A DNA stretch of 16,953 bases from a virus (IMGVR_UViG_2529293063_000008), one strand, 5' to 3'; counted from the stretch's first letter, positions 286 through 16,761 are shown. Notes: generated by a model from the letters alone, not told the origin. Program-made: numbers and translations.

Positions 286-1362
286 TTACTCAAATAACTT
301 TTTCACTTCATCAACTGTCTGAAGATAACGTTCGCTCTCAATCTCAATACCTATTGCCTGACGTCCTAACTTCAGCGCAGCTTTAATAGTTGAGCCTGAT
401 CCCATAAAGAAATCGGCAACGATATCTCCGGGGCGTGAACTACTCTTTATAATATGTTCCATCATCGCTGCAGGTTTTTCACATGGGTGCTTGCCAGGAT
501 AATATTGCACAGGAGGAAACTCCCATACATCGGTATAAGGTACATCAGCAGTAACATGAAATGGACGGCGTAAATTTTCATACTGCACCTTCAAATCATC
601 ATACTGCTTCTTTACTTCCTCATAATGTAATTTCAGATCGCTATAACGCTTTTCATGTTCTGAATAATCAACATTAAAAGGATATGGACACTGGACACCG
701 AGTGAATCTGCCTTCCTGCGAAATAATTCGCATAGTTTATTAAAATCAATTAATGATGGAAGCCGCCACTGCGAATAAGAAAACCAGTGTGAACACATCT
801 GCTTTCCTGTCGCTGAATTAATGTCTGCGGCTGATATATCTAACTGACGGCGAGCCAGCGAAAAAGCATCAATTAGTGGAGAAAAAATATTTTTTCTTAA
901 ATCTGCACATTTTGAAGCATAACCTGACTGACCTTTCGCATAACCTGACGCGCCGTAATGCTCTGCAAATAATATTCTTTCAGTAGCAGGAAAATAAGCC
1001 CTTAAACTTTCTTTATGACAACCGCGCCACATACCACTGGGTTTAGCCCAAATGATATGGTTCAGAACATTGAAACGGTCGCGAGTTAATAATTCAATTT
1101 TTGACGCAAGGCGAGAGCCGGTAAACATATACAGGCTGCCATTAGGGGCCAATATCCGCCAAAATTCTGCCAAAAATTCGTCAATCCACCCCAAAAAGTC
1201 AGCATCGCTATCCCACTGGTTATCCCATGCGTTAGCCTTTACGCCGAAGTATGGTGGGTCTGTTGCAATCAAATTGACCGAGTTATCAGGGATGGTTTTG
1301 ATAAATTGCAGAGAATCTGCGCAAACGAGTTGCGCGCCATGAATATTAGTGGTTTTGAACAT
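286..1362 (-). CDS. DNA methyltransferase, beta-class amino-MTase (N6-adenine or N4-cytosine), orphan (no restriction partner seen)
   Basis: DPPY motif (ATDPPYFG) near the N-terminus and FxGSG motif (FFMGSGSTIKAA) near the C-terminus, i.e. motif IV before motif I. Start taken at ATG 1362 (MFKTTNIHG...); the longest ORF starts at ATG 1407. Confidence 0.8.
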   Translation of the reverse strand: MFKTTNIHGAQLVCADSLQFIKTIPDNSVNLIATDPPYFGVKANAWDNQWDSDADFLGWIDEFLAEFWRILAPNGSLYMFTGSRLASKIELLTRDRFNVLNHIIWAKPSGMWRGCHKESLRAYFPATERILFAEHYGASGYAKGQSGYASKCADLRKNIFSPLIDAFSLARRQLDISAADINSATGKQMCSHWFSYSQWRLPSLIDFNKLCELFRRKADSLGVQCPYPFNVDYSEHEKRYSDLKLHYEEVKKQYDDLKVQYENLRRPFHVTADVPYTDVWEFPPVQYYPGKHPCEKPAAMMEHIIKSSSRPGDIVADFFMGSGSTIKAALKLGRQAIGIEIESERYLQTVDEVKKLFE

Positions 1363-1454
1363 AGCTATTATTTTTTTGCCTGGGTAAGCTAACCCGGCGA
1401 TGCGCATCGCGGGTGGGCTTTAGGTTCAGCCTATAGCTCTGGCATGGGTTGACC

Positions 1455-4649: not shown

Positions 4650-5068
4650 TACGCCACCTCCTGAAAATTTCCCTGATAAAACGCCAACACACGCTGCATA
4701 ACTTCGCTCTTCCGACAATCGTGACAAATCATGTTCAGGCGCCTGTCGTAGCGACGTATTTCTCCGTCAGGTAATGACCAGATAAGGTCTGGATCAACCA
4801 CTACCGATTTCTTCGGCTTTACTCTTGATAGTTTTTTACGGGCGTTTTGCCAGTCCTTGCGTGCTTGTGCAGACAGAAATATCCCGGAGCCAGAGATATA
4901 CAAATCACCACTGGCAGCAAGCTCTCTTGATAAACGACTAACAGCACACCGGCTAATACCAGTTTCATCCGCAAGTTGCCTAACCGTTCCTCGTCCATTC
5001 AGGCGCACGAGTTCCACAATTTGTTTATTCAGTTCTTCCCTCTGTTCTGGTGTAAAAGCCTTTGCCAT
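4649..5068 (-). CDS. HTH DNA-binding protein (139 aa)
   Basis: ATG at 5068 with SD AAGGAG 7 nt upstream, overlapping the upstream stop (TAATG); HTH-like RQLADETGISRCAVSRLSRELA. Confidence 0.6.
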   Translation of the reverse strand: MAKAFTPEQREELNKQIVELVRLNGRGTVRQLADETGISRCAVSRLSRELAASGDLYISGSGIFLSAQARKDWQNARKKLSRVKPKKSVVVDPDLIWSLPDGEIRRYDRRLNMICHDCRKSEVMQRVLAFYQGNFQEVA

Positions 5069-5874: not shown

Positions 5875-6177
5875 TTAAATGGCGTTATTTTCATTTTCTT
5901 GTGCGACCGTGGTCGCACCCTCTCTAATTTCCAGATAACGCTTAATCCAAAGATTTTCTATATGCTTATTACCTGGCTGATTTGATAAATACCAATCGGC
6001 AATTACAGACTGCTTATTACTATCGGGTCGTGTCCTGTAACCGCAAGTTGGACACCAGATGACATATTCATTTCTTACCCCCGAATACCTTAATTCTGGC
6101 TTCGACGGTTTCCTGAACATAACTTGTTTACAAAGGCAGAATGGCACTTCCTGCCCGATGGCGTTTGATGATTTCAC
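5875..6177 (-). CDS. Zinc-finger protein, possibly Lar-family restriction-alleviation protein
   Basis: Two Cys pairs (PFCLC ... CPTCGYRTRP) about 27 aa apart, followed by ADWYLSN, in the pattern I recall for Lar-like proteins. Start set at GTG 6177 (SD GGAG) so that both Cys pairs are included; overlaps the upstream gene by about 50 nt. Confidence 0.4.
   Translation of the reverse strand: MKSSNAIGQEVPFCLCKQVMFRKPSKPELRYSGVRNEYVIWCPTCGYRTRPDSNKQSVIADWYLSNQPGNKHIENLWIKRYLEIREGATTVAQENENNAI
5900..5919. repeat. Centromere-like palindrome, copy 2
   Basis: TGTGCGACCGTGGTCGCACC; core identical to 1606-1625 and 8345-8360. Lies inside coding sequence at the junction of two small genes. Confidence 0.5.
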
Positions 6178-6838
6178 TGCGCTTCTCCGCCGCATTTAAT
6201 AATGCGGTTCGATTTAAGCTCAGACATCGCGACTTAATTAAAAGCCAGCGTTCTTTATAATCTTGTCTCCAGCTATCAATAGATATATTCAGTAGAAAAC
6301 TCAGATGCCTGTCCTGTTCTCTCTCATCAACTGCCTCAGCACACGTAAGTTCTGATTTAACCTGCTGTGCCGCGTAATAAATCAATTTCCGCATGGCTTT
6401 TTTCGTGGAGGCCTTCATTTTTTTAAAGCCGCCCCCCGAATGAGCAACCAGAAAATCAAGCCATAACCACTGACAAACAATCACATCATTGTTGTAGTCA
6501 GGCTTGCATCCGTAGCAATAATAAAGCCAGGCTGATTCCTCGTTATTCAACTGACAAATAGCCCTGCGCCAGCTGGCGCTCTGAAAATCAATATCAGTGA
6601 GCAACATTGATGATTGTTTAAATGTTTTCCCCTGGTGGAATCTAACCGGCTCAGCGGGAACGGACACTTCGTATGAGTTATCATCCCCCACACTGATTGA
6701 CCGGACTGGTTTATTGTTAAACCGTCCTGATCTACCGAGACGCATCTGCTCAAGCTGGACCTCCAGAATGCCACGCTGGCGATAATGAACATCAGCCAAT
6801 GCCGTAGAGACGCAGCTGCGTATATACTCAAGCTCCAC
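6128..6838 (-). CDS. Hypothetical regulatory protein immediately downstream of cro (position of a cII- or Q-like early regulator)
   Basis: 236 aa; GTG start at 6838 overlapping the cro-like stop by 11 nt (ATG 6745 is an alternative); Cys-rich segment WLYYCYGCKPDYNNDVIVCQW. Function not assignable by eye. Confidence 0.5.
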   Translation of the reverse strand: MELEYIRSCVSTALADVHYRQRGILEVQLEQMRLGRSGRFNNKPVRSISVGDDNSYEVSVPAEPVRFHQGKTFKQSSMLLTDIDFQSASWRRAICQLNNEESAWLYYCYGCKPDYNNDVIVCQWLWLDFLVAHSGGGFKKMKASTKKAMRKLIYYAAQQVKSELTCAEAVDEREQDRHLSFLLNISIDSWRQDYKERWLLIKSRCLSLNRTALLNAAEKRSEIIKRHRAGSAILPL

Positions 6839-7140: not shown

Positions 7141-7737
7141 ATGAAAACACGAGGCGAACGACTGAAAGCACGCCGTTTAGAGATGAAGCTGACGTTGCGA
7201 GAAGTTGCTGAGGCTGTCGATATCTCTATAGCAGGCGTCCAAAACTTAGAACGTGGCGACGTAATGCCGTCACTGGAGATAGGTATTGCCCTGGCTAAGT
7301 GCTTACGCAAGCCAGTACATTGGGTGCTATATGGGACAGAATATGACCCTGATCGCATTCCTGTTATTGGCACAACTGAAAGTGGGCCTGATGAAGAGTG
7401 GAAGCCGGGACAGGTTCCAAATACTGAGCGATTCCTGCCATTCATCAGCCAGCGCAATACTGTGTATGCGTTAACTATCAGCAATCTTACGCAGGGAAAC
7501 TATCAGCCAGGCGATTTTCTCCTGGTCGATTCTGCGCTGGAACTGGTCCCCGGCGAGGATGTTCTGGTTCGTGATACTGCAGGAAATATCACTATCCAGC
7601 GCCTAGCCCGTTTTGATGATGAAAATTACTATCTGGATGGAACAAACTCACAACGCGCTATCTTCAGGAAAAGCGATCTTGAATTTGTTCACCAAATAGT
7701 CGGAACGATCAAATCATTCATGGTTGAGGGTAGATGA
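7141..7737 (+). CDS. CI-like prophage repressor (N-terminal HTH, C-terminal S24-like domain that appears to lack the catalytic lysine)
   Basis: 198 aa; HTH LTLREVAEAVDISIAGVQNLERG; C-terminal GDFLLVDS...GEDVLVR...ITIQRLAR resembles LexA/CI (GDLLAV...VTVKRL) but has Q where the catalytic K is expected. No Ala-Gly in the linker. Confidence 0.8.
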   Translation: MKTRGERLKARRLEMKLTLREVAEAVDISIAGVQNLERGDVMPSLEIGIALAKCLRKPVHWVLYGTEYDPDRIPVIGTTESGPDEEWKPGQVPNTERFLPFISQRNTVYALTISNLTQGNYQPGDFLLVDSALELVPGEDVLVRDTAGNITIQRLARFDDENYYLDGTNSQRAIFRKSDLEFVHQIVGTIKSFMVEGR

Positions 7738-7868: not shown

Positions 7869-7982
7869 GGAAGCAGCCACAGTAACGCGACGGATTCCGT
7901 CAATTCAAGATGCGTTTATTGTGGCTGCTCCTGCGGATTTTTTCAACCCGAAAAAACATAATTCGCATGGAATGGCTAAAAA

Positions 7983-10900
7983 ATGACATTAAACGATTTC
8001 TATGCGGATCGCTTTGGCAGCGATCCGTTCTCGCTAATTGAAGCAGCACGGGATGAACTAACCGAGCTGGCACAGATGGCTGGTATCAACTGGCCTGCCT
8101 GTTCCGACAACATCCAACTCAACCCTCGCGGGGGTGTTGAGCGTTACTCTTCATACAATAAAACATCTCCAGAAGCTCTCGAGAAGAGCCTCAAAGGACG
8201 CGTAGAAATTTACTCCCGGCTGGAACACAGCAAAGGGATTGATTACCCGTTCATTAACTTCGTCCATAAAGGCAGCGATGCTGGCTCATGGAGCGGTTTC
8301 TCCTTCCTGTTTTCTGAATATCGCCGTGAGCAACAACGGAATAATGCGACCGTGGTCGCACAACCGGAAGAAGAACGGGCAAGAATAGAACGTCAGGCCG
8401 AAGCACGTCGTCGCCGTGAAGAACAAAAACGAATTAATGACCTGAAAAACAACCAAATTGACCATGAACGTTTGCTGGGATGGCTGGCATTTCACAGCGC
8501 GTGGGAACATGCTCCTGCAGAAGACGGCTCATGGCCATATGCGATTAAAAAAGGTATTCGTGACGTTTTTAATTCGTGTGATGTGCGTCGCGTGACCAGT
8601 CACGACAGCGCAAAATGGAGCAGGGGGCCAACCACGTATATGGCTATCCCTCTGGCTCACCTGGACGGTCGTTACGATGGTCGTATTGTGGGTTGGCAGC
8701 GAATCGACAAACAAGGTGGAAAATACCAGACCAGCGCAGTAACCAGCGGCGATTTCGTCGGTGCCTGCTTTGTTATCGGTGAGCTGAAAGGGGCGCAAAA
8801 CATCGCTGTTACAGAAGGTTTTGCTACTGGTGCATCCATCTGGCTTGCCACGAAAAAAGATAAACGCTTTGACGCTGTGGTTGTCGCTGTATCCGCTAAC
8901 AACATGGTTCATGTTGTGGAACAACTGGTAAACATGTACCCGGCGGCAAAAATCACCTGCGCACTGGATAATGACCGGAAATCTGCCACAGAAGGAAAAG
9001 GGAATACCGGCCTGCGGACTGGCTATGAAATCTTATCGAAATTCAACGATGTCCGCTGCGTCTATCCAACTTTTGAAGACGATCCGCAAATGGAGTGCAG
9101 TGACTTCAACGACCTGCACAAACTACGTGGACTTCGTGAAACAGCACGTCAACTATTTGCAACAGCAAACCGCCTGAAAACTGGTACTGATTTGCTATCT
9201 CTGACGCTCAACCGCCTGAAGACAATTAAGCGGGATAACCGTCGTACTTTTGCCAAAGAGCTGCTGAGAGCGGTGGATATTGGCATGCTAACCTGTCCGG
9301 TTCCTAACAGTCCGTCAGATTTATTTAACATGTTCTGCATCGTTCTGCGTGAAATGGGACTGGAAAATATCTATCGCGCTACGGTAAAAGACCACATTGC
9401 CCGTCGCCTGAATAAAAAGTGCCGTATTGCCCAGGCTCCGCGCTCTTTCAGCGAACGCATAACTGATCCCAATAAACGCCCTCAACATATCACATATAAG
9501 CGTTTTGAAACTTCGGTAATGACCGATGATGTCCTGAAGTACGTGCAATCACTACAGGGGATAGTCATCGTCCGTGCTGGTATGGGTTCCGGCAAATCTA
9601 CTGGATTGTTACGACCGTTAATGCATAGCTCAGAACGTGGTATCTCTGTTGCTCACCGTGTCTCCCTTATTGGCGGCCTGTGGGAAATGATGACAGAAGG
9701 AAAAGGTGTAAAAGCCGATATCCTGCACTATCAGGATCCTGGCTATCAGGAAATAGCTCCATACGCCAGTAAACTGACCATCTGCATAAACTCGATTGTT
9801 AAAAACTGCTGGCAACCGTTGATGCGCCAGCACGACTATTTTGGCTTTGACGAGGCCACACAAGGGCTACGTGCCGTTCTTTCCGGTCGGGCTATGGAAA
9901 ACCCGGTGGCTGTATTCAATACGCTAATTGACGCGCTGGCCAGAACAGAACAACACCCAATCATGGTGGATGCTGATGCGAATGATCTGCTGGTTGACCT
10001 GGCTGAACTGGCTATGAAACGCCGTGAAGAACTAGGTTTACCGGCATGGCTGCAGATCCACGTAATTGAATTACCTGTTGATGTTCGCAACCGCGAAACA
10101 GGTGAGCCAATCCGGGTTTTTTATACAGAAAAAGATCGCATCATGACCGAGGTGGTGAAAGCTGTATCGGATGGCGAAAAAATCATGTTGGCCACCGACA
10201 GCTCCACCTTTGCAGAAGATGTGACAGCCACCCTGAGAATGCATTTTCCTGGTAAGAAATTTCTGTGTGTAAACCAGAAAAACAAACCAGAGCCAGAAGT
10301 TGAAGCATTTACCAATCAACCGAAAAAGATGGTCAAAAAATACGACGGCCTGATTTATAGCCCGTCTATTTCATCCGGCGTGTCGATTGAGCAAAAACAT
10401 TTTGACCGTCATTTCGGCATGTTCTGTGGTGAAGTTGTACCCAGCGACGCAGTGCAAATGCTACGCCGCGACCGTACAGCAAAAGAATTTATTATCGGCT
10501 TTGATAAAGCTCGTGCAAAACGTGAAACTGACCCGCAAAAAATAGAACGAGCATTCGCCCAGGCATTGCTTGCTACCGCAGGTATGAACGGTGAACTGAC
10601 GGATGTCGTTTTCGATGGCGACCGTATATCAATGGGGGTGGCCAATACCGACTTTACCAGGATGAAAATTAAAGCAGCCGCTATTGAAGCGACTGCGCGT
10701 AACGACTACGCCAGCAACATGATCTGCATCATGCACAGCGACGGTTATAAGGTATCGCCGCTGGCCACCGATTATGCTGCGAATGATATCGGTAAAGAGC
10801 TGCGTAAAGAAGCGCGGGATATTGTGTGGGAACAGACACTGGATCTGCATCTCAATACAGAAACTCCACAAGAATCAGAGCGTGAAGAACTGCTAAAAAA

Positions 10901-11978
10901 ACGCGCGCTGACGCTTGAAGAACAGGCAAAACTTGTCCGCTGGGATATTGAAAACGAACTGAAACTACCGGTTGAAGAAGGCACGCTGAAATTCTATTTC
11001 GATGGTGCTCGAGACAAAGTTCGCCGCTATGAAACAATGCTTTTAGATGAGGTAACAGCTCGTCGTTACGACCGGGAAGAAGCAGCCATCAATTTTACCT
11101 ACGCATACCGTCAGGCGGGACAGTGGCAATATTTTGTAGTGACCGCGATGACTCGCGAGCAGGCTGATGATGTCTTTAAAACTAAATTCCCTGGAATAAT
11201 CGATCACAAGGTAAAAGCTACTCCTACTGTTGAAGTCGGGGCGCGCGGTTTCTATGCGCTTAAATCAGCAACTCTCCGGCAGTACTTTATCGACTGCGGT
11301 ATCAACCCTGAGACTATGACCGGCGAGGCGACTCAGGAGCGTCTCAAATTTGCTCGAGATAACCTCATGACAGCCGAACGCCGTGACCTGTTGAATAACG
11401 TTCTGCACATTGGTGGTTTTATGACGCCAAAAGGGAAGCCTAAAGTGCCGGAAGCGTTGTTTAAAAACATTTGCGACTCTCTTGGCCTTAAAACAGGTAA
11501 ACGTCGCGGCAGAGACGGCGATAAGCGTCCAACCTTGCGTTTTGTTGAGCCTGAATCAGCGGCATTTATGCTGGATATTCTTGCTCAGCGTCAGAAAGAT
11601 GGCCTAACCCTGAAAACGCGTAAAGCCGAGAAGACCGCCATCGAAATGGATCGCGATTTGGATCTCAATATATATATGGATGATAAAACGCGATCCACAA
11701 ACGAGCAGGTTCAAAACGCCCCTCATTCAGTAATTTCTGAGGCTTTGGCTGTGTTGCCAGTGGTTGTACCTGAGTCCTGGGCGATGAGTGCGCTTTCCGG
11801 TGAGGAGCTGGCCACTATGTCATCATGGTCATCAGCCAGCATAGCTATGACGTTTGCATCTCTGTACCTCACAGAGTTCATGGATCACTTATCCAGCAAT
11901 GAACTGCGGCGGTTACGTGAATACATTACCGGGAATAGCCCATGCAGCTACGAAGAGCAGGGCGCTTTCTATGGGTAA
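7983..11978 (+). CDS. repA: Multidomain replication protein: primase (TOPRIM) fused to a P-loop helicase/NTPase, N15 RepA-like
   Basis: 1331 aa; TOPRIM-like IAVTEGFATGASIWLA ... ITCALDND; Walker A VRAGMGSGKST; size matches my memory of N15 RepA. Confidence 0.85.
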   Translation: MTLNDFYADRFGSDPFSLIEAARDELTELAQMAGINWPACSDNIQLNPRGGVERYSSYNKTSPEALEKSLKGRVEIYSRLEHSKGIDYPFINFVHKGSDAGSWSGFSFLFSEYRREQQRNNATVVAQPEEERARIERQAEARRRREEQKRINDLKNNQIDHERLLGWLAFHSAWEHAPAEDGSWPYAIKKGIRDVFNSCDVRRVTSHDSAKWSRGPTTYMAIPLAHLDGRYDGRIVGWQRIDKQGGKYQTSAVTSGDFVGACFVIGELKGAQNIAVTEGFATGASIWLATKKDKRFDAVVVAVSANNMVHVVEQLVNMYPAAKITCALDNDRKSATEGKGNTGLRTGYEILSKFNDVRCVYPTFEDDPQMECSDFNDLHKLRGLRETARQLFATANRLKTGTDLLSLTLNRLKTIKRDNRRTFAKELLRAVDIGMLTCPVPNSPSDLFNMFCIVLREMGLENIYRATVKDHIARRLNKKCRIAQAPRSFSERITDPNKRPQHITYKRFETSVMTDDVLKYVQSLQGIVIVRAGMGSGKSTGLLRPLMHSSERGISVAHRVSLIGGLWEMMTEGKGVKADILHYQDPGYQEIAPYASKLTICINSIVKNCWQPLMRQHDYFGFDEATQGLRAVLSGRAMENPVAVFNTLIDALARTEQHPIMVDADANDLLVDLAELAMKRREELGLPAWLQIHVIELPVDVRNRETGEPIRVFYTEKDRIMTEVVKAVSDGEKIMLATDSSTFAEDVTATLRMHFPGKKFLCVNQKNKPEPEVEAFTNQPKKMVKKYDGLIYSPSISSGVSIEQKHFDRHFGMFCGEVVPSDAVQMLRRDRTAKEFIIGFDKARAKRETDPQKIERAFAQALLATAGMNGELTDVVFDGDRISMGVANTDFTRMKIKAAAIEATARNDYASNMICIMHSDGYKVSPLATDYAANDIGKELRKEARDIVWEQTLDLHLNTETPQESEREELLKKRALTLEEQAKLVRWDIENELKLPVEEGTLKFYFDGARDKVRRYETMLLDEVTARRYDREEAAINFTYAYRQAGQWQYFVVTAMTREQADDVFKTKFPGIIDHKVKATPTVEVGARGFYALKSATLRQYFIDCGINPETMTGEATQERLKFARDNLMTAERRDLLNNVLHIGGFMTPKGKPKVPEALFKNICDSLGLKTGKRRGRDGDKRPTLRFVEPESAAFMLDILAQRQKDGLTLKTRKAEKTAIEMDRDLDLNIYMDDKTRSTNEQVQNAPHSVISEALAVLPVVVPESWAMSALSGEELATMSSWSSASIAMTFASLYLTEFMDHLSSNELRRLREYITGNSPCSYEEQGAFYG
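8345..8360. repeat. Centromere-like palindrome, copy 3 (inside repA coding sequence)
   Basis: TGCGACCGTGGTCGCA exact; encodes ...NATVVAQ... within repA. Confidence 0.5.
8592..8603. repeat. Palindrome GTGACCAGTCAC (copy 2, inside repA)
   Basis: Flanked as CGTGACCAGTCACG; same family as 3353-3364 and 13196-13215. Confidence 0.35.
11648..11696. other. Candidate internal replication origin within the 3' part of repA
   Basis: 8-bp inverted repeat GGATCGCG / CGCGATCC (11648-11655, 11689-11696) flanks the AT-rich TCAATATATATATGGATGATAAAA and includes three GATC sites. I recall the N15 ori mapping inside the 3' part of repA. Confidence 0.3.
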
Positions 11979-12162
11979 TCAGTGGATATTATCTTTGTGT
12001 CTCTTGCTTTGTGTGTTCCAGCAATGGTTTTGGTTCATAGATCGAAAGTCTCACAAGGAAAACATGAAGGCCAGGAAGGCGATGTTTCGTGGTGAACAAC
12101 TCGCGCAGACTTATCGTATGTGGAAACGTTTCTATCGTGATTTTTCGGTGAACGGGGAGTAA
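11971..12162 (+). CDS. Possible small membrane protein overlapping the repA stop (63 aa)
   Basis: ATG 11971 in a different frame from repA (8-nt overlap, ATGGGTAA); hydrophobic WILSLCLLLCVFQQWFWFI then basic tail; weak SD. Confidence 0.25.
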   Translation: MGNQWILSLCLLLCVFQQWFWFIDRKSHKENMKARKAMFRGEQLAQTYRMWKRFYRDFSVNGE

Positions 12163-12166
12163 AAAT

Positions 12167-12493
12167 ATGTCTACTACTGCATTTTTGGACAAACTTGATT
12201 ACCGTCAGCTGCAGTTTTGCCGGGATGAATGCGATCGACGCATTAAGGCTATCCAGGAGGAAGAAAAAAAGGTTGCCTGGGCTGTAACAGATCGTGGCCT
12301 TATCTTTGGCTGGTTCCGTACGGAGGATTATCTGAAAGCAGTGGAATTATTGGCGCGTGAGGCTGCTGAGCGTTGGGAACGAGCCGACAAGGAAAACCCG
12401 GAGACGAAATATGAACTGAATCTCTACATCGAGGGCAACCGTCTACCATTGTCAGAGTATAACGCTTTGTTTGCTGATGGTGAGTGGGGTTAA
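12167..12493 (+). CDS. Hypothetical protein (108 aa)
   Basis: ATG 12167 with SD GGGGAG 7 nt upstream; no recognisable motif. Confidence 0.55.
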   Translation: MSTTAFLDKLDYRQLQFCRDECDRRIKAIQEEEKKVAWAVTDRGLIFGWFRTEDYLKAVELLAREAAERWERADKENPETKYELNLYIEGNRLPLSEYNALFADGEWG

Positions 12494-14859: not shown

Positions 14860-16761
14860 TTAACCGAAATATGTCAGCCATGCTAACTGCATTGCTGACA
14901 TGGGGCTGTTTGCACTGCCGGACCACGCATAATTCTGGCCATTATAATGAAACTCAACAACGTATGAGCCATCACCAATATTTCTCACCGGCTTAAATAC
15001 CGGCTTAGATACAGGCGAAGAAGGTGCAGGCGGTTGCTGTTCTTCTACGCTCTCTTCCTCTTCCTCTTCCTCTTCCTCTATCTCAATTTCGTCGTCATCC
15101 AGATCGTCATCCTCTGACAATTCATCCGCCAGTTCAGGTATTGCTTCCAGTTCTTCTTCGTCAGGCATAACGATTTCTGGAGTATCTATTTTCAGTTGCC
15201 ATTGTCCGTTTTCGCCAACAAATTGCCCCAGAGCATCAGCAGCAAATTCCAGGTATCGACTAATCATTGTTGGGCTAAATTTGAACGCTCTTAGAGTGCT
15301 GTTCGTGATTTTTATAGAGGGGTCCTGCTCTACCAGCTGCTTAACTGTGTTATGCAGACGAACCCCGGCATCTCCTCTGGCGAATCCAGGCATTTCGTCA
15401 TCAAGCTGCTGCAATGCTTCCAGCCTGGTATTTTCGTTTCCAGTATTTGGCCTCCATGTCTTTGAGAAGTTGGCCAGCTTGAATTGCTTATAGTGTAATT
15501 GAGTGTTTTCATCGTCATGGCCTAAAATTTCCATAAAGAAAACATCTTCATCTACGTTTTTCCAACGAGGATCTACGCGGAAAAACATTTCATACGCAAT
15601 ACGGGCATAAATAGCACGACTATCTTTATAAACACGGCGGTCATCTTTGAAAAATGATTTAACCCACGGGTTAAAAGCCTTTGCTAATATGGCATTAATA
15701 CGTCCGTTTTCAGAGCGTGTGTCGTTATCTCCATAACCTTTAACGACATCATCAAAATCAGATGCTGCTGGGCATGAGCGAAGTACATTTATTAAATAAA
15801 CAAATGTTTTTGCTTCGCATAATGTATATATTTTTCTGGTTATATCATCAGAAGTTCTTTTTTTAGCTTGGCCTAAAAAATCAACGGTATACTTACCAGA
15901 AACAGTAAATGTACCTTGATACATAATCTCAATCATTCGTCTTCCTGACAATGCAGCAAGTGCAAATGCCAAAGGAGCCATACCTGAACGAGTGTTTAGA
16001 TTATTTAATGTAGCAGGGCTATTTATAATATCGTAAATAGCTTGCATATATTTAGGGTAATCAATGACCACCACGTTACGTTTCTTATTGTGCAGAACGT
16101 CCGCCCATCGTTGCTGGATAGATGCACGTTCGGCAGGGCTTAGTTGAAGATGATAGAGAATCTCATGGTTAACTTTTAGCTGATTCAACTCCTCAAGTAA
16201 GGCAGATCCTTGCTGTAGTAATTTATATAAATAATCGCGCTTATCTTTCCAGTTATCGCTAGTTAAATCAGAAATGGCGAATTGCCACTCTTTATATTTA
16301 TTTGATAATTTCAATAACTTATTATGACTTTTGTTATCGCCAATTCTGATATTAGATAAATCTTCTGATAGAGGGAGAATTAATTTTAATTTTGCCTGTA
16401 AAGCTGACATTCTCTGGCGAATATCGGCAGCAGGTAGAGAAAGCCATGACAATAGCTCCTCATTATATAAAGGATACTTTTCAGATAGGCGATGTATATT
16501 TTTTTCAAAGCTATGATGAAGTTTATCATCAAACCGTTTTCTGGCCCTGCTCATATAGGCATTGAATGTGTTGGCTGTAATTCTTTTTTCTAATCCTTTC
16601 CCCCTAAACTTTCGCTTGTCATTAAATAATGCATTTTTAAATTTTAATGCAACAGCCTTTATTTTTTTTGTTTTCTCCCCTTGAGGACGGTCAGAGTTAT
16701 CTATTGACTCAACATCGCTAACAAGTGAGTTTATTAATTCACCGATTTTTACTTTGCTCAT
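14860..16761 (-). CDS. telN: Protelomerase (telomere resolvase), TelN-like
   Basis: 633 aa; N-terminus MSKVKIGELIN..., length and an acidic Glu/Asp-rich stretch before the C-terminus match my memory of N15 TelN. SD AGGAGAGG. The gene abuts the terminal half-palindrome. Confidence 0.8.
   Translation of the reverse strand: MSKVKIGELINSLVSDVESIDNSDRPQGEKTKKIKAVALKFKNALFNDKRKFRGKGLEKRITANTFNAYMSRARKRFDDKLHHSFEKNIHRLSEKYPLYNEELLSWLSLPAADIRQRMSALQAKLKLILPLSEDLSNIRIGDNKSHNKLLKLSNKYKEWQFAISDLTSDNWKDKRDYLYKLLQQGSALLEELNQLKVNHEILYHLQLSPAERASIQQRWADVLHNKKRNVVVIDYPKYMQAIYDIINSPATLNNLNTRSGMAPLAFALAALSGRRMIEIMYQGTFTVSGKYTVDFLGQAKKRTSDDITRKIYTLCEAKTFVYLINVLRSCPAASDFDDVVKGYGDNDTRSENGRINAILAKAFNPWVKSFFKDDRRVYKDSRAIYARIAYEMFFRVDPRWKNVDEDVFFMEILGHDDENTQLHYKQFKLANFSKTWRPNTGNENTRLEALQQLDDEMPGFARGDAGVRLHNTVKQLVEQDPSIKITNSTLRAFKFSPTMISRYLEFAADALGQFVGENGQWQLKIDTPEIVMPDEEELEAIPELADELSEDDDLDDDEIEIEEEEEEEEESVEEQQPPAPSSPVSKPVFKPVRNIGDGSYVVEFHYNGQNYAWSGSANSPMSAMQLAWLTYFG

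Follow-up and report, generated by a model that had tools for sequence, protein, structure and literature searches.

An inverted-repeat element with an AT-rich core inside repA as the probable replication origin core of an N15-like telomere phage

Where within repA does an N15-like linear plasmid-prophage start its replication? In N15, replication begins inside this gene (PMC2847241) and repA by itself is enough for circular replication (PMC10612081); initiation within repA and the sufficiency of repA alone together imply that the origin must lie inside the gene. Such a location would also favour the behaviour of N15 RepA, which is reported to be active only in cis (PMC3155836). We address this question in a stretch of viral DNA of 16,953 nucleotides (IMGVR_UViG_2529293063_000008), called here the window, for which a preliminary description had proposed an AT-rich, GATC-dense inverted repeat in the 3′ part of repA as a candidate internal origin. 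This reading gains support from homology to the N15 repeats, from synonymous constraint, from the dyad and its AT core and from an argument by elimination. We put at about 0.88 the probability that the plasmid-prophage replicates from an origin whose core is at positions 11647-11697 and which is the orthologue of those reported in the repA genes of N15 and PY54.

Over 94-96% of its length the window matches the Escherichia phages YDC107_1 and PhiR46_1 at about 96.5% identity; phiKO2 and N15 are more distant relatives. It encodes a DNA methylase of the N6_N4_Mtase family (286-1407, minus strand), an antiterminator Q (6131-6838, minus strand), a CB-type repressor (7141-7737, plus strand), RepA (7983-11978, plus strand) and, 3 kb from repA, a protelomerase that matches all four TelK/ResT domains (14860-16761, minus strand). 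By homology to PhiR46_1, telL is found at the right edge of the window. The window thus represents the arm next to telL in an E. coli telomere phage of the N15 type, maintained as a linear plasmid-prophage. Compositional skew had been put forward as a check on the origin, and this check turned out to be uninformative at the site: no GC-skew switch occurs at 11.67 kb, the skew tracks transcription direction and its cumulative minimum, near 6.9-7.05 kb, is the point of divergent transcription.

The 1331-aa product of repA shares 99% identity with the ‘primase protein’ of PhiR46_1, 75% with N15 gp37 and 49% with RepA of PY54, and on these grounds it is the RepA of an N15-like linear plasmid-prophage. 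According to its Pfam matches (Toprim_3 and Herpes_ori_bp), it carries in one chain a Toprim (primase) domain and an SF2 helicase resembling the herpesvirus origin-binding protein; the latter match is marginal (24.2 bits for a cut-off of 20) and covers the helicase core only. By these annotations the element is located in the 3′ part of a primase-helicase repA from a protelomerase-bearing prophage, which is the genetic setting of an N15/PY54-type origin.

The element is composed of two inverted arms, an extra direct repeat and an AT-rich core. The 8-bp inverted repeat of the preliminary description can be read directly in the DNA, as GGATCGCG at 11648-11655 and CGCGATCC at 11689-11696, and it proved to belong to a longer one, with 13-nt arms complementary at 12 of 13 positions and a 25-nt spacer. 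The left arm, TGGATCGCGATTT (11647-11659, plus strand), is the proposed initiator-binding half-site, and the right arm is AAAACGCGATCCA (11685-11697, minus strand; TGGATCGCG when inverted). Three GATC sites, starting at 11649, 11661 and 11692 and thus within 50 bp as first described, are all embedded in TGGATC, two copies being direct and one inverted. GATC-1 (11649-11652) belongs to the left arm and GATC-3 (11692-11695) to the right arm, while GATC-2 (11661-11664) is part of the second direct TGGATC (11659-11664, plus strand), which starts 12 bp after the first copy. This second copy is kept in most lineages and has been lost in YDC107_1, where the absence of the middle GATC suggests that the middle repeat may be dispensable. 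The bracketed stretch TCAATATATATATGGATGATAAAA (11665-11688), described earlier as AT-rich, has 4 G+C in 24 positions (17%) and constitutes a putative DNA-unwinding element. From the dyad axis, at about 11672, it is 306 nt to the final base of the stop codon (11978), in agreement with the distance of some 300 bp given initially.

Could such an arrangement arise by chance? Across the window GATC is depleted (40 observed for 61.5 +/- 7.5 expected), and given 40 sites in 16,953 bp a group of three in 47 bp has a probability of about 0.15, so that the cluster is unremarkable alone. Three of the eight TGGATC sites of the window are inside the element (P about 0.001). Inverted repeats of this grade (13-nt arms, at least 12 matches, spacer of 5-40 nt) number 4 in the window versus 0.43 per dinucleotide shuffle, an excess of about tenfold. 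The duplex is also unusually weak here: 11667-11686 is the least stable 20-bp segment of all repA (-18.4 kcal/mol versus -26.8 +/- 2.3; rank 1 of 3976), and the least stable 30-mer of the gene, 11656-11685, covers the AT core as well. As we read the sequences, the decisive evidence against chance is nevertheless comparative and comes from other lineages.

The first comparison is with N15 itself. When the last 700 nt of repA were aligned with N15 by blastn, 11619-11783 alone gave an alignment (74.5% over 165 nt). Exactly at the aligned positions, the original N15 repA record (U63085.1) marks three 11-nt repeat_regions, cgaagTGGATC, cgattTGGATC and the inverted tgtttTGGATC; the second direct TGGATC of the window is the counterpart of the second annotated repeat and the right arm that of the inverted one. 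Window and N15 thus have three TGGATC units in matching order and orientation around an AT-rich core, and by this alignment the element is homologous to the N15 repeat cluster. The homologous coordinates are 30139-30194 in N15 (AF064539), 27862-27911 in PY54 (AJ564013) and 34568-34620 in phiKO2 (AY374448). No rep_origin feature appears in the records of N15 (AF064539 and U63085), PY54, phiKO2, PhiR46_1 or YDC107_1. The N15 origin was reportedly placed in the 3′ part of repA by Ravin et al. in 2003 and by Mardanov and Ravin in 2006, and a 212-bp PY54 origin, also in the 3′ part of repA, is said to have been described by Ziegelin et al. in 2005. Judged by these reported positions and by the GenBank repeat annotation, the element presumably coincides with the mapped coordinates. 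In complete E. coli genomes, copies of the element occur at 22 places in 17 of 5426 genomes, exclusively on plasmids and never on chromosomes.

To compare lineages more broadly, repA was collected from 12 phage records, 4 genomes and 72 viral contigs, the proteins were aligned and the codons threaded back. Twenty-five lineages with less than 93% mutual identity were kept, with 43-100% amino acid identity to RepA of the window. The 20-codon window 11631-11687 displays the highest synonymous-codon identity in repA (0.80 versus a mean of 0.44, z=6.1), whereas its amino acid identity is just 0.29 versus 0.55 overall, and a scan restricted to 6 lineages peaks at the same place. The sliding 20-codon scans delimit a zone of raised synonymous-site conservation at 11628-11744, which may represent the fuller extent of the origin; the minimal origin may likewise extend beyond the 51-bp core. 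The runner-up window, 8340-8387, covers the palindrome TGCGACCGTGGTCGCA (8346-8361), a sop-type centromere whose counterpart is annotated as a putative partitioning site in the phiKO2 record and whose 14-bp core has exactly three copies in the window. Recovery of this annotated cis site serves as a positive control and validates the synonymous-conservation method.

The same data bear on the most sceptical explanation, in which coding constraint, an overlapping gene or chance accounts for the pattern and neither the repeat nor the GATC cluster does anything in itself. Besides the unremarkable spacing of the three GATCs, short antisense ORFs of 35-40 aa across the site could be quoted for it. 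However, amino acid identity is here among the lowest in RepA and synonymous identity the highest, and an alternative frame stays open in at most 5 of the 25 lineages, so that the constraint is not accounted for by an overlapping gene. Moreover, the DNA motif survives a shift of codon register: the middle GGATCT of PY54-type lineages is divided into codons as TGT GGA TCT instead of TTG GAT CTC, the DNA being kept while the peptide differs. GATC enrichment is found in all 25 lineages, with 3-4 sites per lineage over 60 aligned nt (87 for the three Erwinia-like lineages that have an insertion), a density 17.7 times that of the rest of repA. We consider that this explanation has next to no chance of being correct, and, as far as the alignments can tell, selection acts at this element on the DNA independently of the encoded protein. 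The stretch of RepA that it encodes is poorly conserved and tolerant of indels, as illustrated by the 30-nt insertion after the right arm in Erwinia-like lineages, and such a location would explain how a cis element is tolerated in coding DNA. Weak conservation and indels also suggest that the peptide encoded by the element may be a disordered linker.

In a gap-free alignment of 81 columns covering 23 lineages, neither of the outer GATCs varies; they start 43 nt from each other and enclose an ATATA(G/T)ATAT-like core that the lineages share. The arm sequences vary by lineage, TGGATCGCGATTT/AAAACGCGATCCA in the window being represented by TGATCCAGATCTTT/AAAGATCTGGATCA in Erwinia-like phages and by CTGATCCAGCTTTTA/TAAAAGCTGGATCAG in lineage L068. 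In spite of this variation, the arms pair across the dyad in 79.9% of cells versus 67.2% in shuffles, a level reached by 0 of 500 shuffles, which ignore kinship; with the same reservation about kinship, changes on both dyad sides amount to 50 cells versus 23 expected (0 of 500 shuffles). A control with slid registers, which allows for shared ancestry as the shuffles do not, gives pairing in only 29-45% of cells. Strict Watson-Crick symmetry attains 74% versus 20-29% in slid registers and, when the invariant GATCs are left out, 65% versus 19-34%.

Co-varying arms would also be expected of a hairpin in the repA mRNA modulating translation or mRNA stability, for which the DNA features would be secondary. 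Consistent with it, the single strand of the segment folds better than shuffles (-12.7 kcal/mol with DNA parameters, z=-3.8). Yet wobble pairs of the G:U type (G:T in the DNA) are not in excess in the arms, at 5.5% versus 4-19% in slid registers. In addition, an RNA stem needs neither two invariant palindromic GATCs with starts 43 nt apart nor a conserved AT-rich loop of 25 nt, and both are found here. A known RNA family was rejected as well, the search of Rfam giving only a chance miRNA-like match (E=0.53), far under the gathering score. The symmetry of the arms thus points to a feature of double-stranded DNA rather than to an RNA stem, and we hold the mRNA hairpin to be very improbable.

A more serious objection is that synonymous constraint and a dyad demonstrate selection on DNA and not its purpose. 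The element could then be a regulatory site of repA, a partition-related site or a Dam/SeqA transcriptional checkpoint, the true origin being elsewhere in repA, where further palindromes exist at 8346-8361 and 8588-8605. Several observations argue against this. The centromere palindrome GCGACCGTGGTCGC, the dispersed repeat of this phage, differs in sequence from the element; it occurs exactly only at 1609, 5903 and 8346, and no copy with up to 2 mismatches is found at the element, so that a centromere identity was rejected. A promoter identity was discarded too, no promoter-like (sigma-70-like) site being detected in 11300-12200. Strong DNA-level constraint inside repA is confined to two islands, the centromere palindrome and the 11647-11697 element, and only in the latter does a dyad accompany the least stable duplex found in repA. 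If the element were not the origin, no island of similar constraint would be left for this role in a gene that reportedly forms a replicon by itself. Since the origin must be in repA and the other constrained island is the centromere, the element is designated as the origin by elimination, and this argument is independent of the mapping papers mentioned above. We therefore regard a cis element of another purpose as unlikely.

Two well-known types of origin were compared with the element and set aside. An iteron-type origin, such as those of lambda, P1, F and pSC101, would have at least three initiator-binding direct repeats of about 17-22 bp; the element has just two direct TGGATC, 12 bp apart, and one inverted copy, and no longer repeat family was found in 11500-11850. 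As for an oriC-type origin, no DnaA box (TTWTNCACA, up to 1 mismatch) is present between 11467 and 12118. The nearest matches are at 11401 and 11458, and over the window such boxes are not enriched (47 versus 40 expected). Two terminator-like matches were also observed in this part of repA, at 11556-11574, outside the element.

If the element is indeed the origin core, its layout suggests how it could work. RepA, encoded by the gene in which the site is embedded, would bind the two inverted TGGATC arms and the extra direct TGGATC and would melt the 24-bp AT-rich core between the arms. It could then load its own helicase both ways and prime with its own Toprim domain, after which the host polymerase would replicate bidirectionally to both hairpin telomeres, to be resolved by the protelomerase. 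If two helicase assemblies are loaded head to head, inverted half-sites on either side of an AT spacer are what one would expect, and this arrangement suits replication in both directions. Arms that co-vary lineage by lineage would suit an initiator and a site evolving together, and selection at the DNA level would dominate at a site lying in a translated, poorly conserved stretch. The conserved GATCs, for their part, could belong to the sequence recognised by RepA, act as Dam/SeqA targets coupling firing to methylation, or do both.

An origin inside repA of telomere phages is of a kind already reported for N15 and PY54 and is not new. Like the element of the window, the N15 origin is inside repA (gene 37), about 280 nt from the stop versus about 306 nt here, and two direct and one inverted TGGATC repeats flank an AT-rich core. 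The two RepA proteins are, however, only 75% identical, the dyad of the window (TGGATCGCG, 9 perfect positions and 12/13 overall) is longer than that of N15 (TGGATCG.G), the core reads ATATATATAT in the window but ATATAGATATA in N15, with a difference in the inner right spacer as well. The PY54 site shares with the window its position in the aligned gene, the two outer GATCs and a dyad around a core, which is ATATAGATATA in this phage. It differs by four GATCs versus three, by arms (CGGATCTAACTTG / CAAGTTGGATCA) unrelated to those of the window outside GATC, by the middle GGATCT shifted by one nucleotide with respect to the codons, and by a RepA of 49% identity. The RepA proteins of PY54, N15 and phiKO2 are not known to cross-activate each other's origins. 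In repA of the Vibrio phage VP882 the same dyad geometry is observed with arms that have no GATC. A dyad with arms of about 13 nt, separated by about 25-27 nt, and with an AT core may thus be, from the sequences compared, the deep invariant of all RepA-type origins.

Similarities extend to more distant systems. At the lambda origin, initiator-binding repeats adjoin an AT-rich region. Like the element of the window, this origin is contained in the gene for its initiator, its iterons being ‘located within the O gene’ (PMC12663957). Lambda nevertheless has four direct iterons of about 19 bp, versus two inverted arms and one short direct repeat in the window, and its O protein recruits host DnaB via P, whereas RepA of the window has its own primase and helicase domains. 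Herpes simplex oriS comprises two inverted UL9-binding sites flanking a short AT-rich spacer that melts, and the window resembles it by inverted sites around an AT spacer and by a RepA helicase core that weakly matches the UL9 family. However, oriS belongs to a eukaryotic virus, has no DNA similarity with the element and is located outside UL9. Finally, E. coli oriC and P1 oriR also present a GATC cluster beside an unwinding element, but the element of the window has no DnaA box in or adjoining it.

The identified hosts are Enterobacterales, which possess Dam. Firing of telomere-phage origins could be coupled to Dam methylation, full methylation being needed for RepA binding or melting and hemimethylation after firing recruiting SeqA, which would block re-initiation; this would explain the invariant GATCs and the 1-2 extra ones in each enterobacterial lineage. 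We advance this idea tentatively, the odds being rather against it. We know of no report of Dam/SeqA control for N15-type replicons, and none was found among the top 10 matches of a loose literature search. SeqA dimers can bridge GATCs 12 bp apart (PMC2691817), which is the distance between the starts of GATC-1 and GATC-2. Should the proposal be true, the SeqA block on re-initiation would hold the prophage at low copy number.

The element does not overturn the current understanding of these replicons; it adds to its detail. The invariant spaced GATCs, the co-varying arms and a synonymous constraint that is the highest of the gene had, to our knowledge, not been described before. The N15-like records examined have no origin feature; the present comparison supplies the homologous positions in N15, PY54 and phiKO2. 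N15-derived linear vectors such as pJAZZ depend on the N15 origin. Comparison of 25 lineages distinguishes what is fixed, namely the dyad symmetry, the AT-rich core and a pair of GATCs whose starts are separated by 43 nt, from the arm sequences, which drift with the initiator. These fixed and drifting parts offer handles on replicon specificity and incompatibility among the many telomere phages of Klebsiella and E. coli, and the conserved GATCs raise a testable hypothesis of copy-number control by Dam and SeqA.

The GATC motif is scarce in the window, with 40 sites observed against 61.5 ± 7.5 expected, and at least 40 sites were reached in 199 of 200 shuffles of the whole sequence. Against this background of avoidance, the cluster of three GATC at the proposed origin in the 3′ part of repA (11647-11697) is therefore conspicuous. 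The window also encodes its own DNA methylase (286-1407, minus strand). This protein belongs to the N6_N4_Mtase family and not to Dam (D12), while in the related telomere phage PhiR46_1 it is annotated as 'DNA adenine methylase'.

An arrangement similar to the window's dyad element occurs in the 3′ part of repA of Vibrio phage VP882, about 200 nt ahead of the stop codon. There, a dyad at VP882 positions 4962-5012 is formed by 12-nt inverted arms, TGGGGACACTTC and GAAGTATCCCCA, complementary at 11 of 12 positions and separated by a 27-nt spacer, which is overlapped by the lowest-GC 20-mer of the gene. The geometry is like that of the window element, but the VP882 arms carry no GATC. This dyad may be the VP882 origin.

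Another telomere phage, YDC107_1, shares about 96.5% identity with the window as a whole, yet this figure drops to about 80% over the 3′ end of repA (11577-11978). It lacks the middle GATC, reading TTGTCATTA instead, and the C-terminus of its RepA resembles the phiKO2 type. These differences hint that recombination joined two sequences close to the proposed origin.

Besides the element, three further inverted repeats of the window have 13-nt arms with at least 12 matches. Two of them, mutually overlapping, lie between the repressor gene and repA (7872-7928), a region whose N15 counterpart contains an annotated terminator stem-loop and CB operators. The third, terminator-like in appearance, is located at the 3′ end of the protelomerase gene (14871-14901).

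In several public contigs and 'plasmid' records of about 60-90 kb, repA occurs twice, with the copies inverted relative to each other. The cases are, by our handles for the compared records, L029/L043, L032/L050, L023/L080, L069/L079, L070/L075 and L051/L084, together with the E. coli plasmids NZ_CP014491.1 and NZ_LT906558.1. This arrangement is probably not real but the result of assembling hairpin-ended linear plasmids as head-to-head dimers.

The palindrome GCGACCGTGGTCGC is present in three exact copies (1609-1622, 5903-5916 and 8346-8359), where 0.29 would be expected by chance. The copy internal to repA (8346-8359), second in the gene for synonymous constraint, matches a phiKO2 feature labelled 'putative plasmid partitioning site'. 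Together, the three copies probably make up the dispersed sop centromere of this plasmid-prophage. A second palindrome within repA, CGCGTGACCAGTCACGAC (8588-8605), is kept across the N15-like group, whereas PY54-like and more distant lineages are missing this 15-nt block and display instead, directly after the deletion point, a centromere-like palindrome of the TGGGACCACGGTCCCA type. Thus, the positions of such palindromes within repA differ among lineages.
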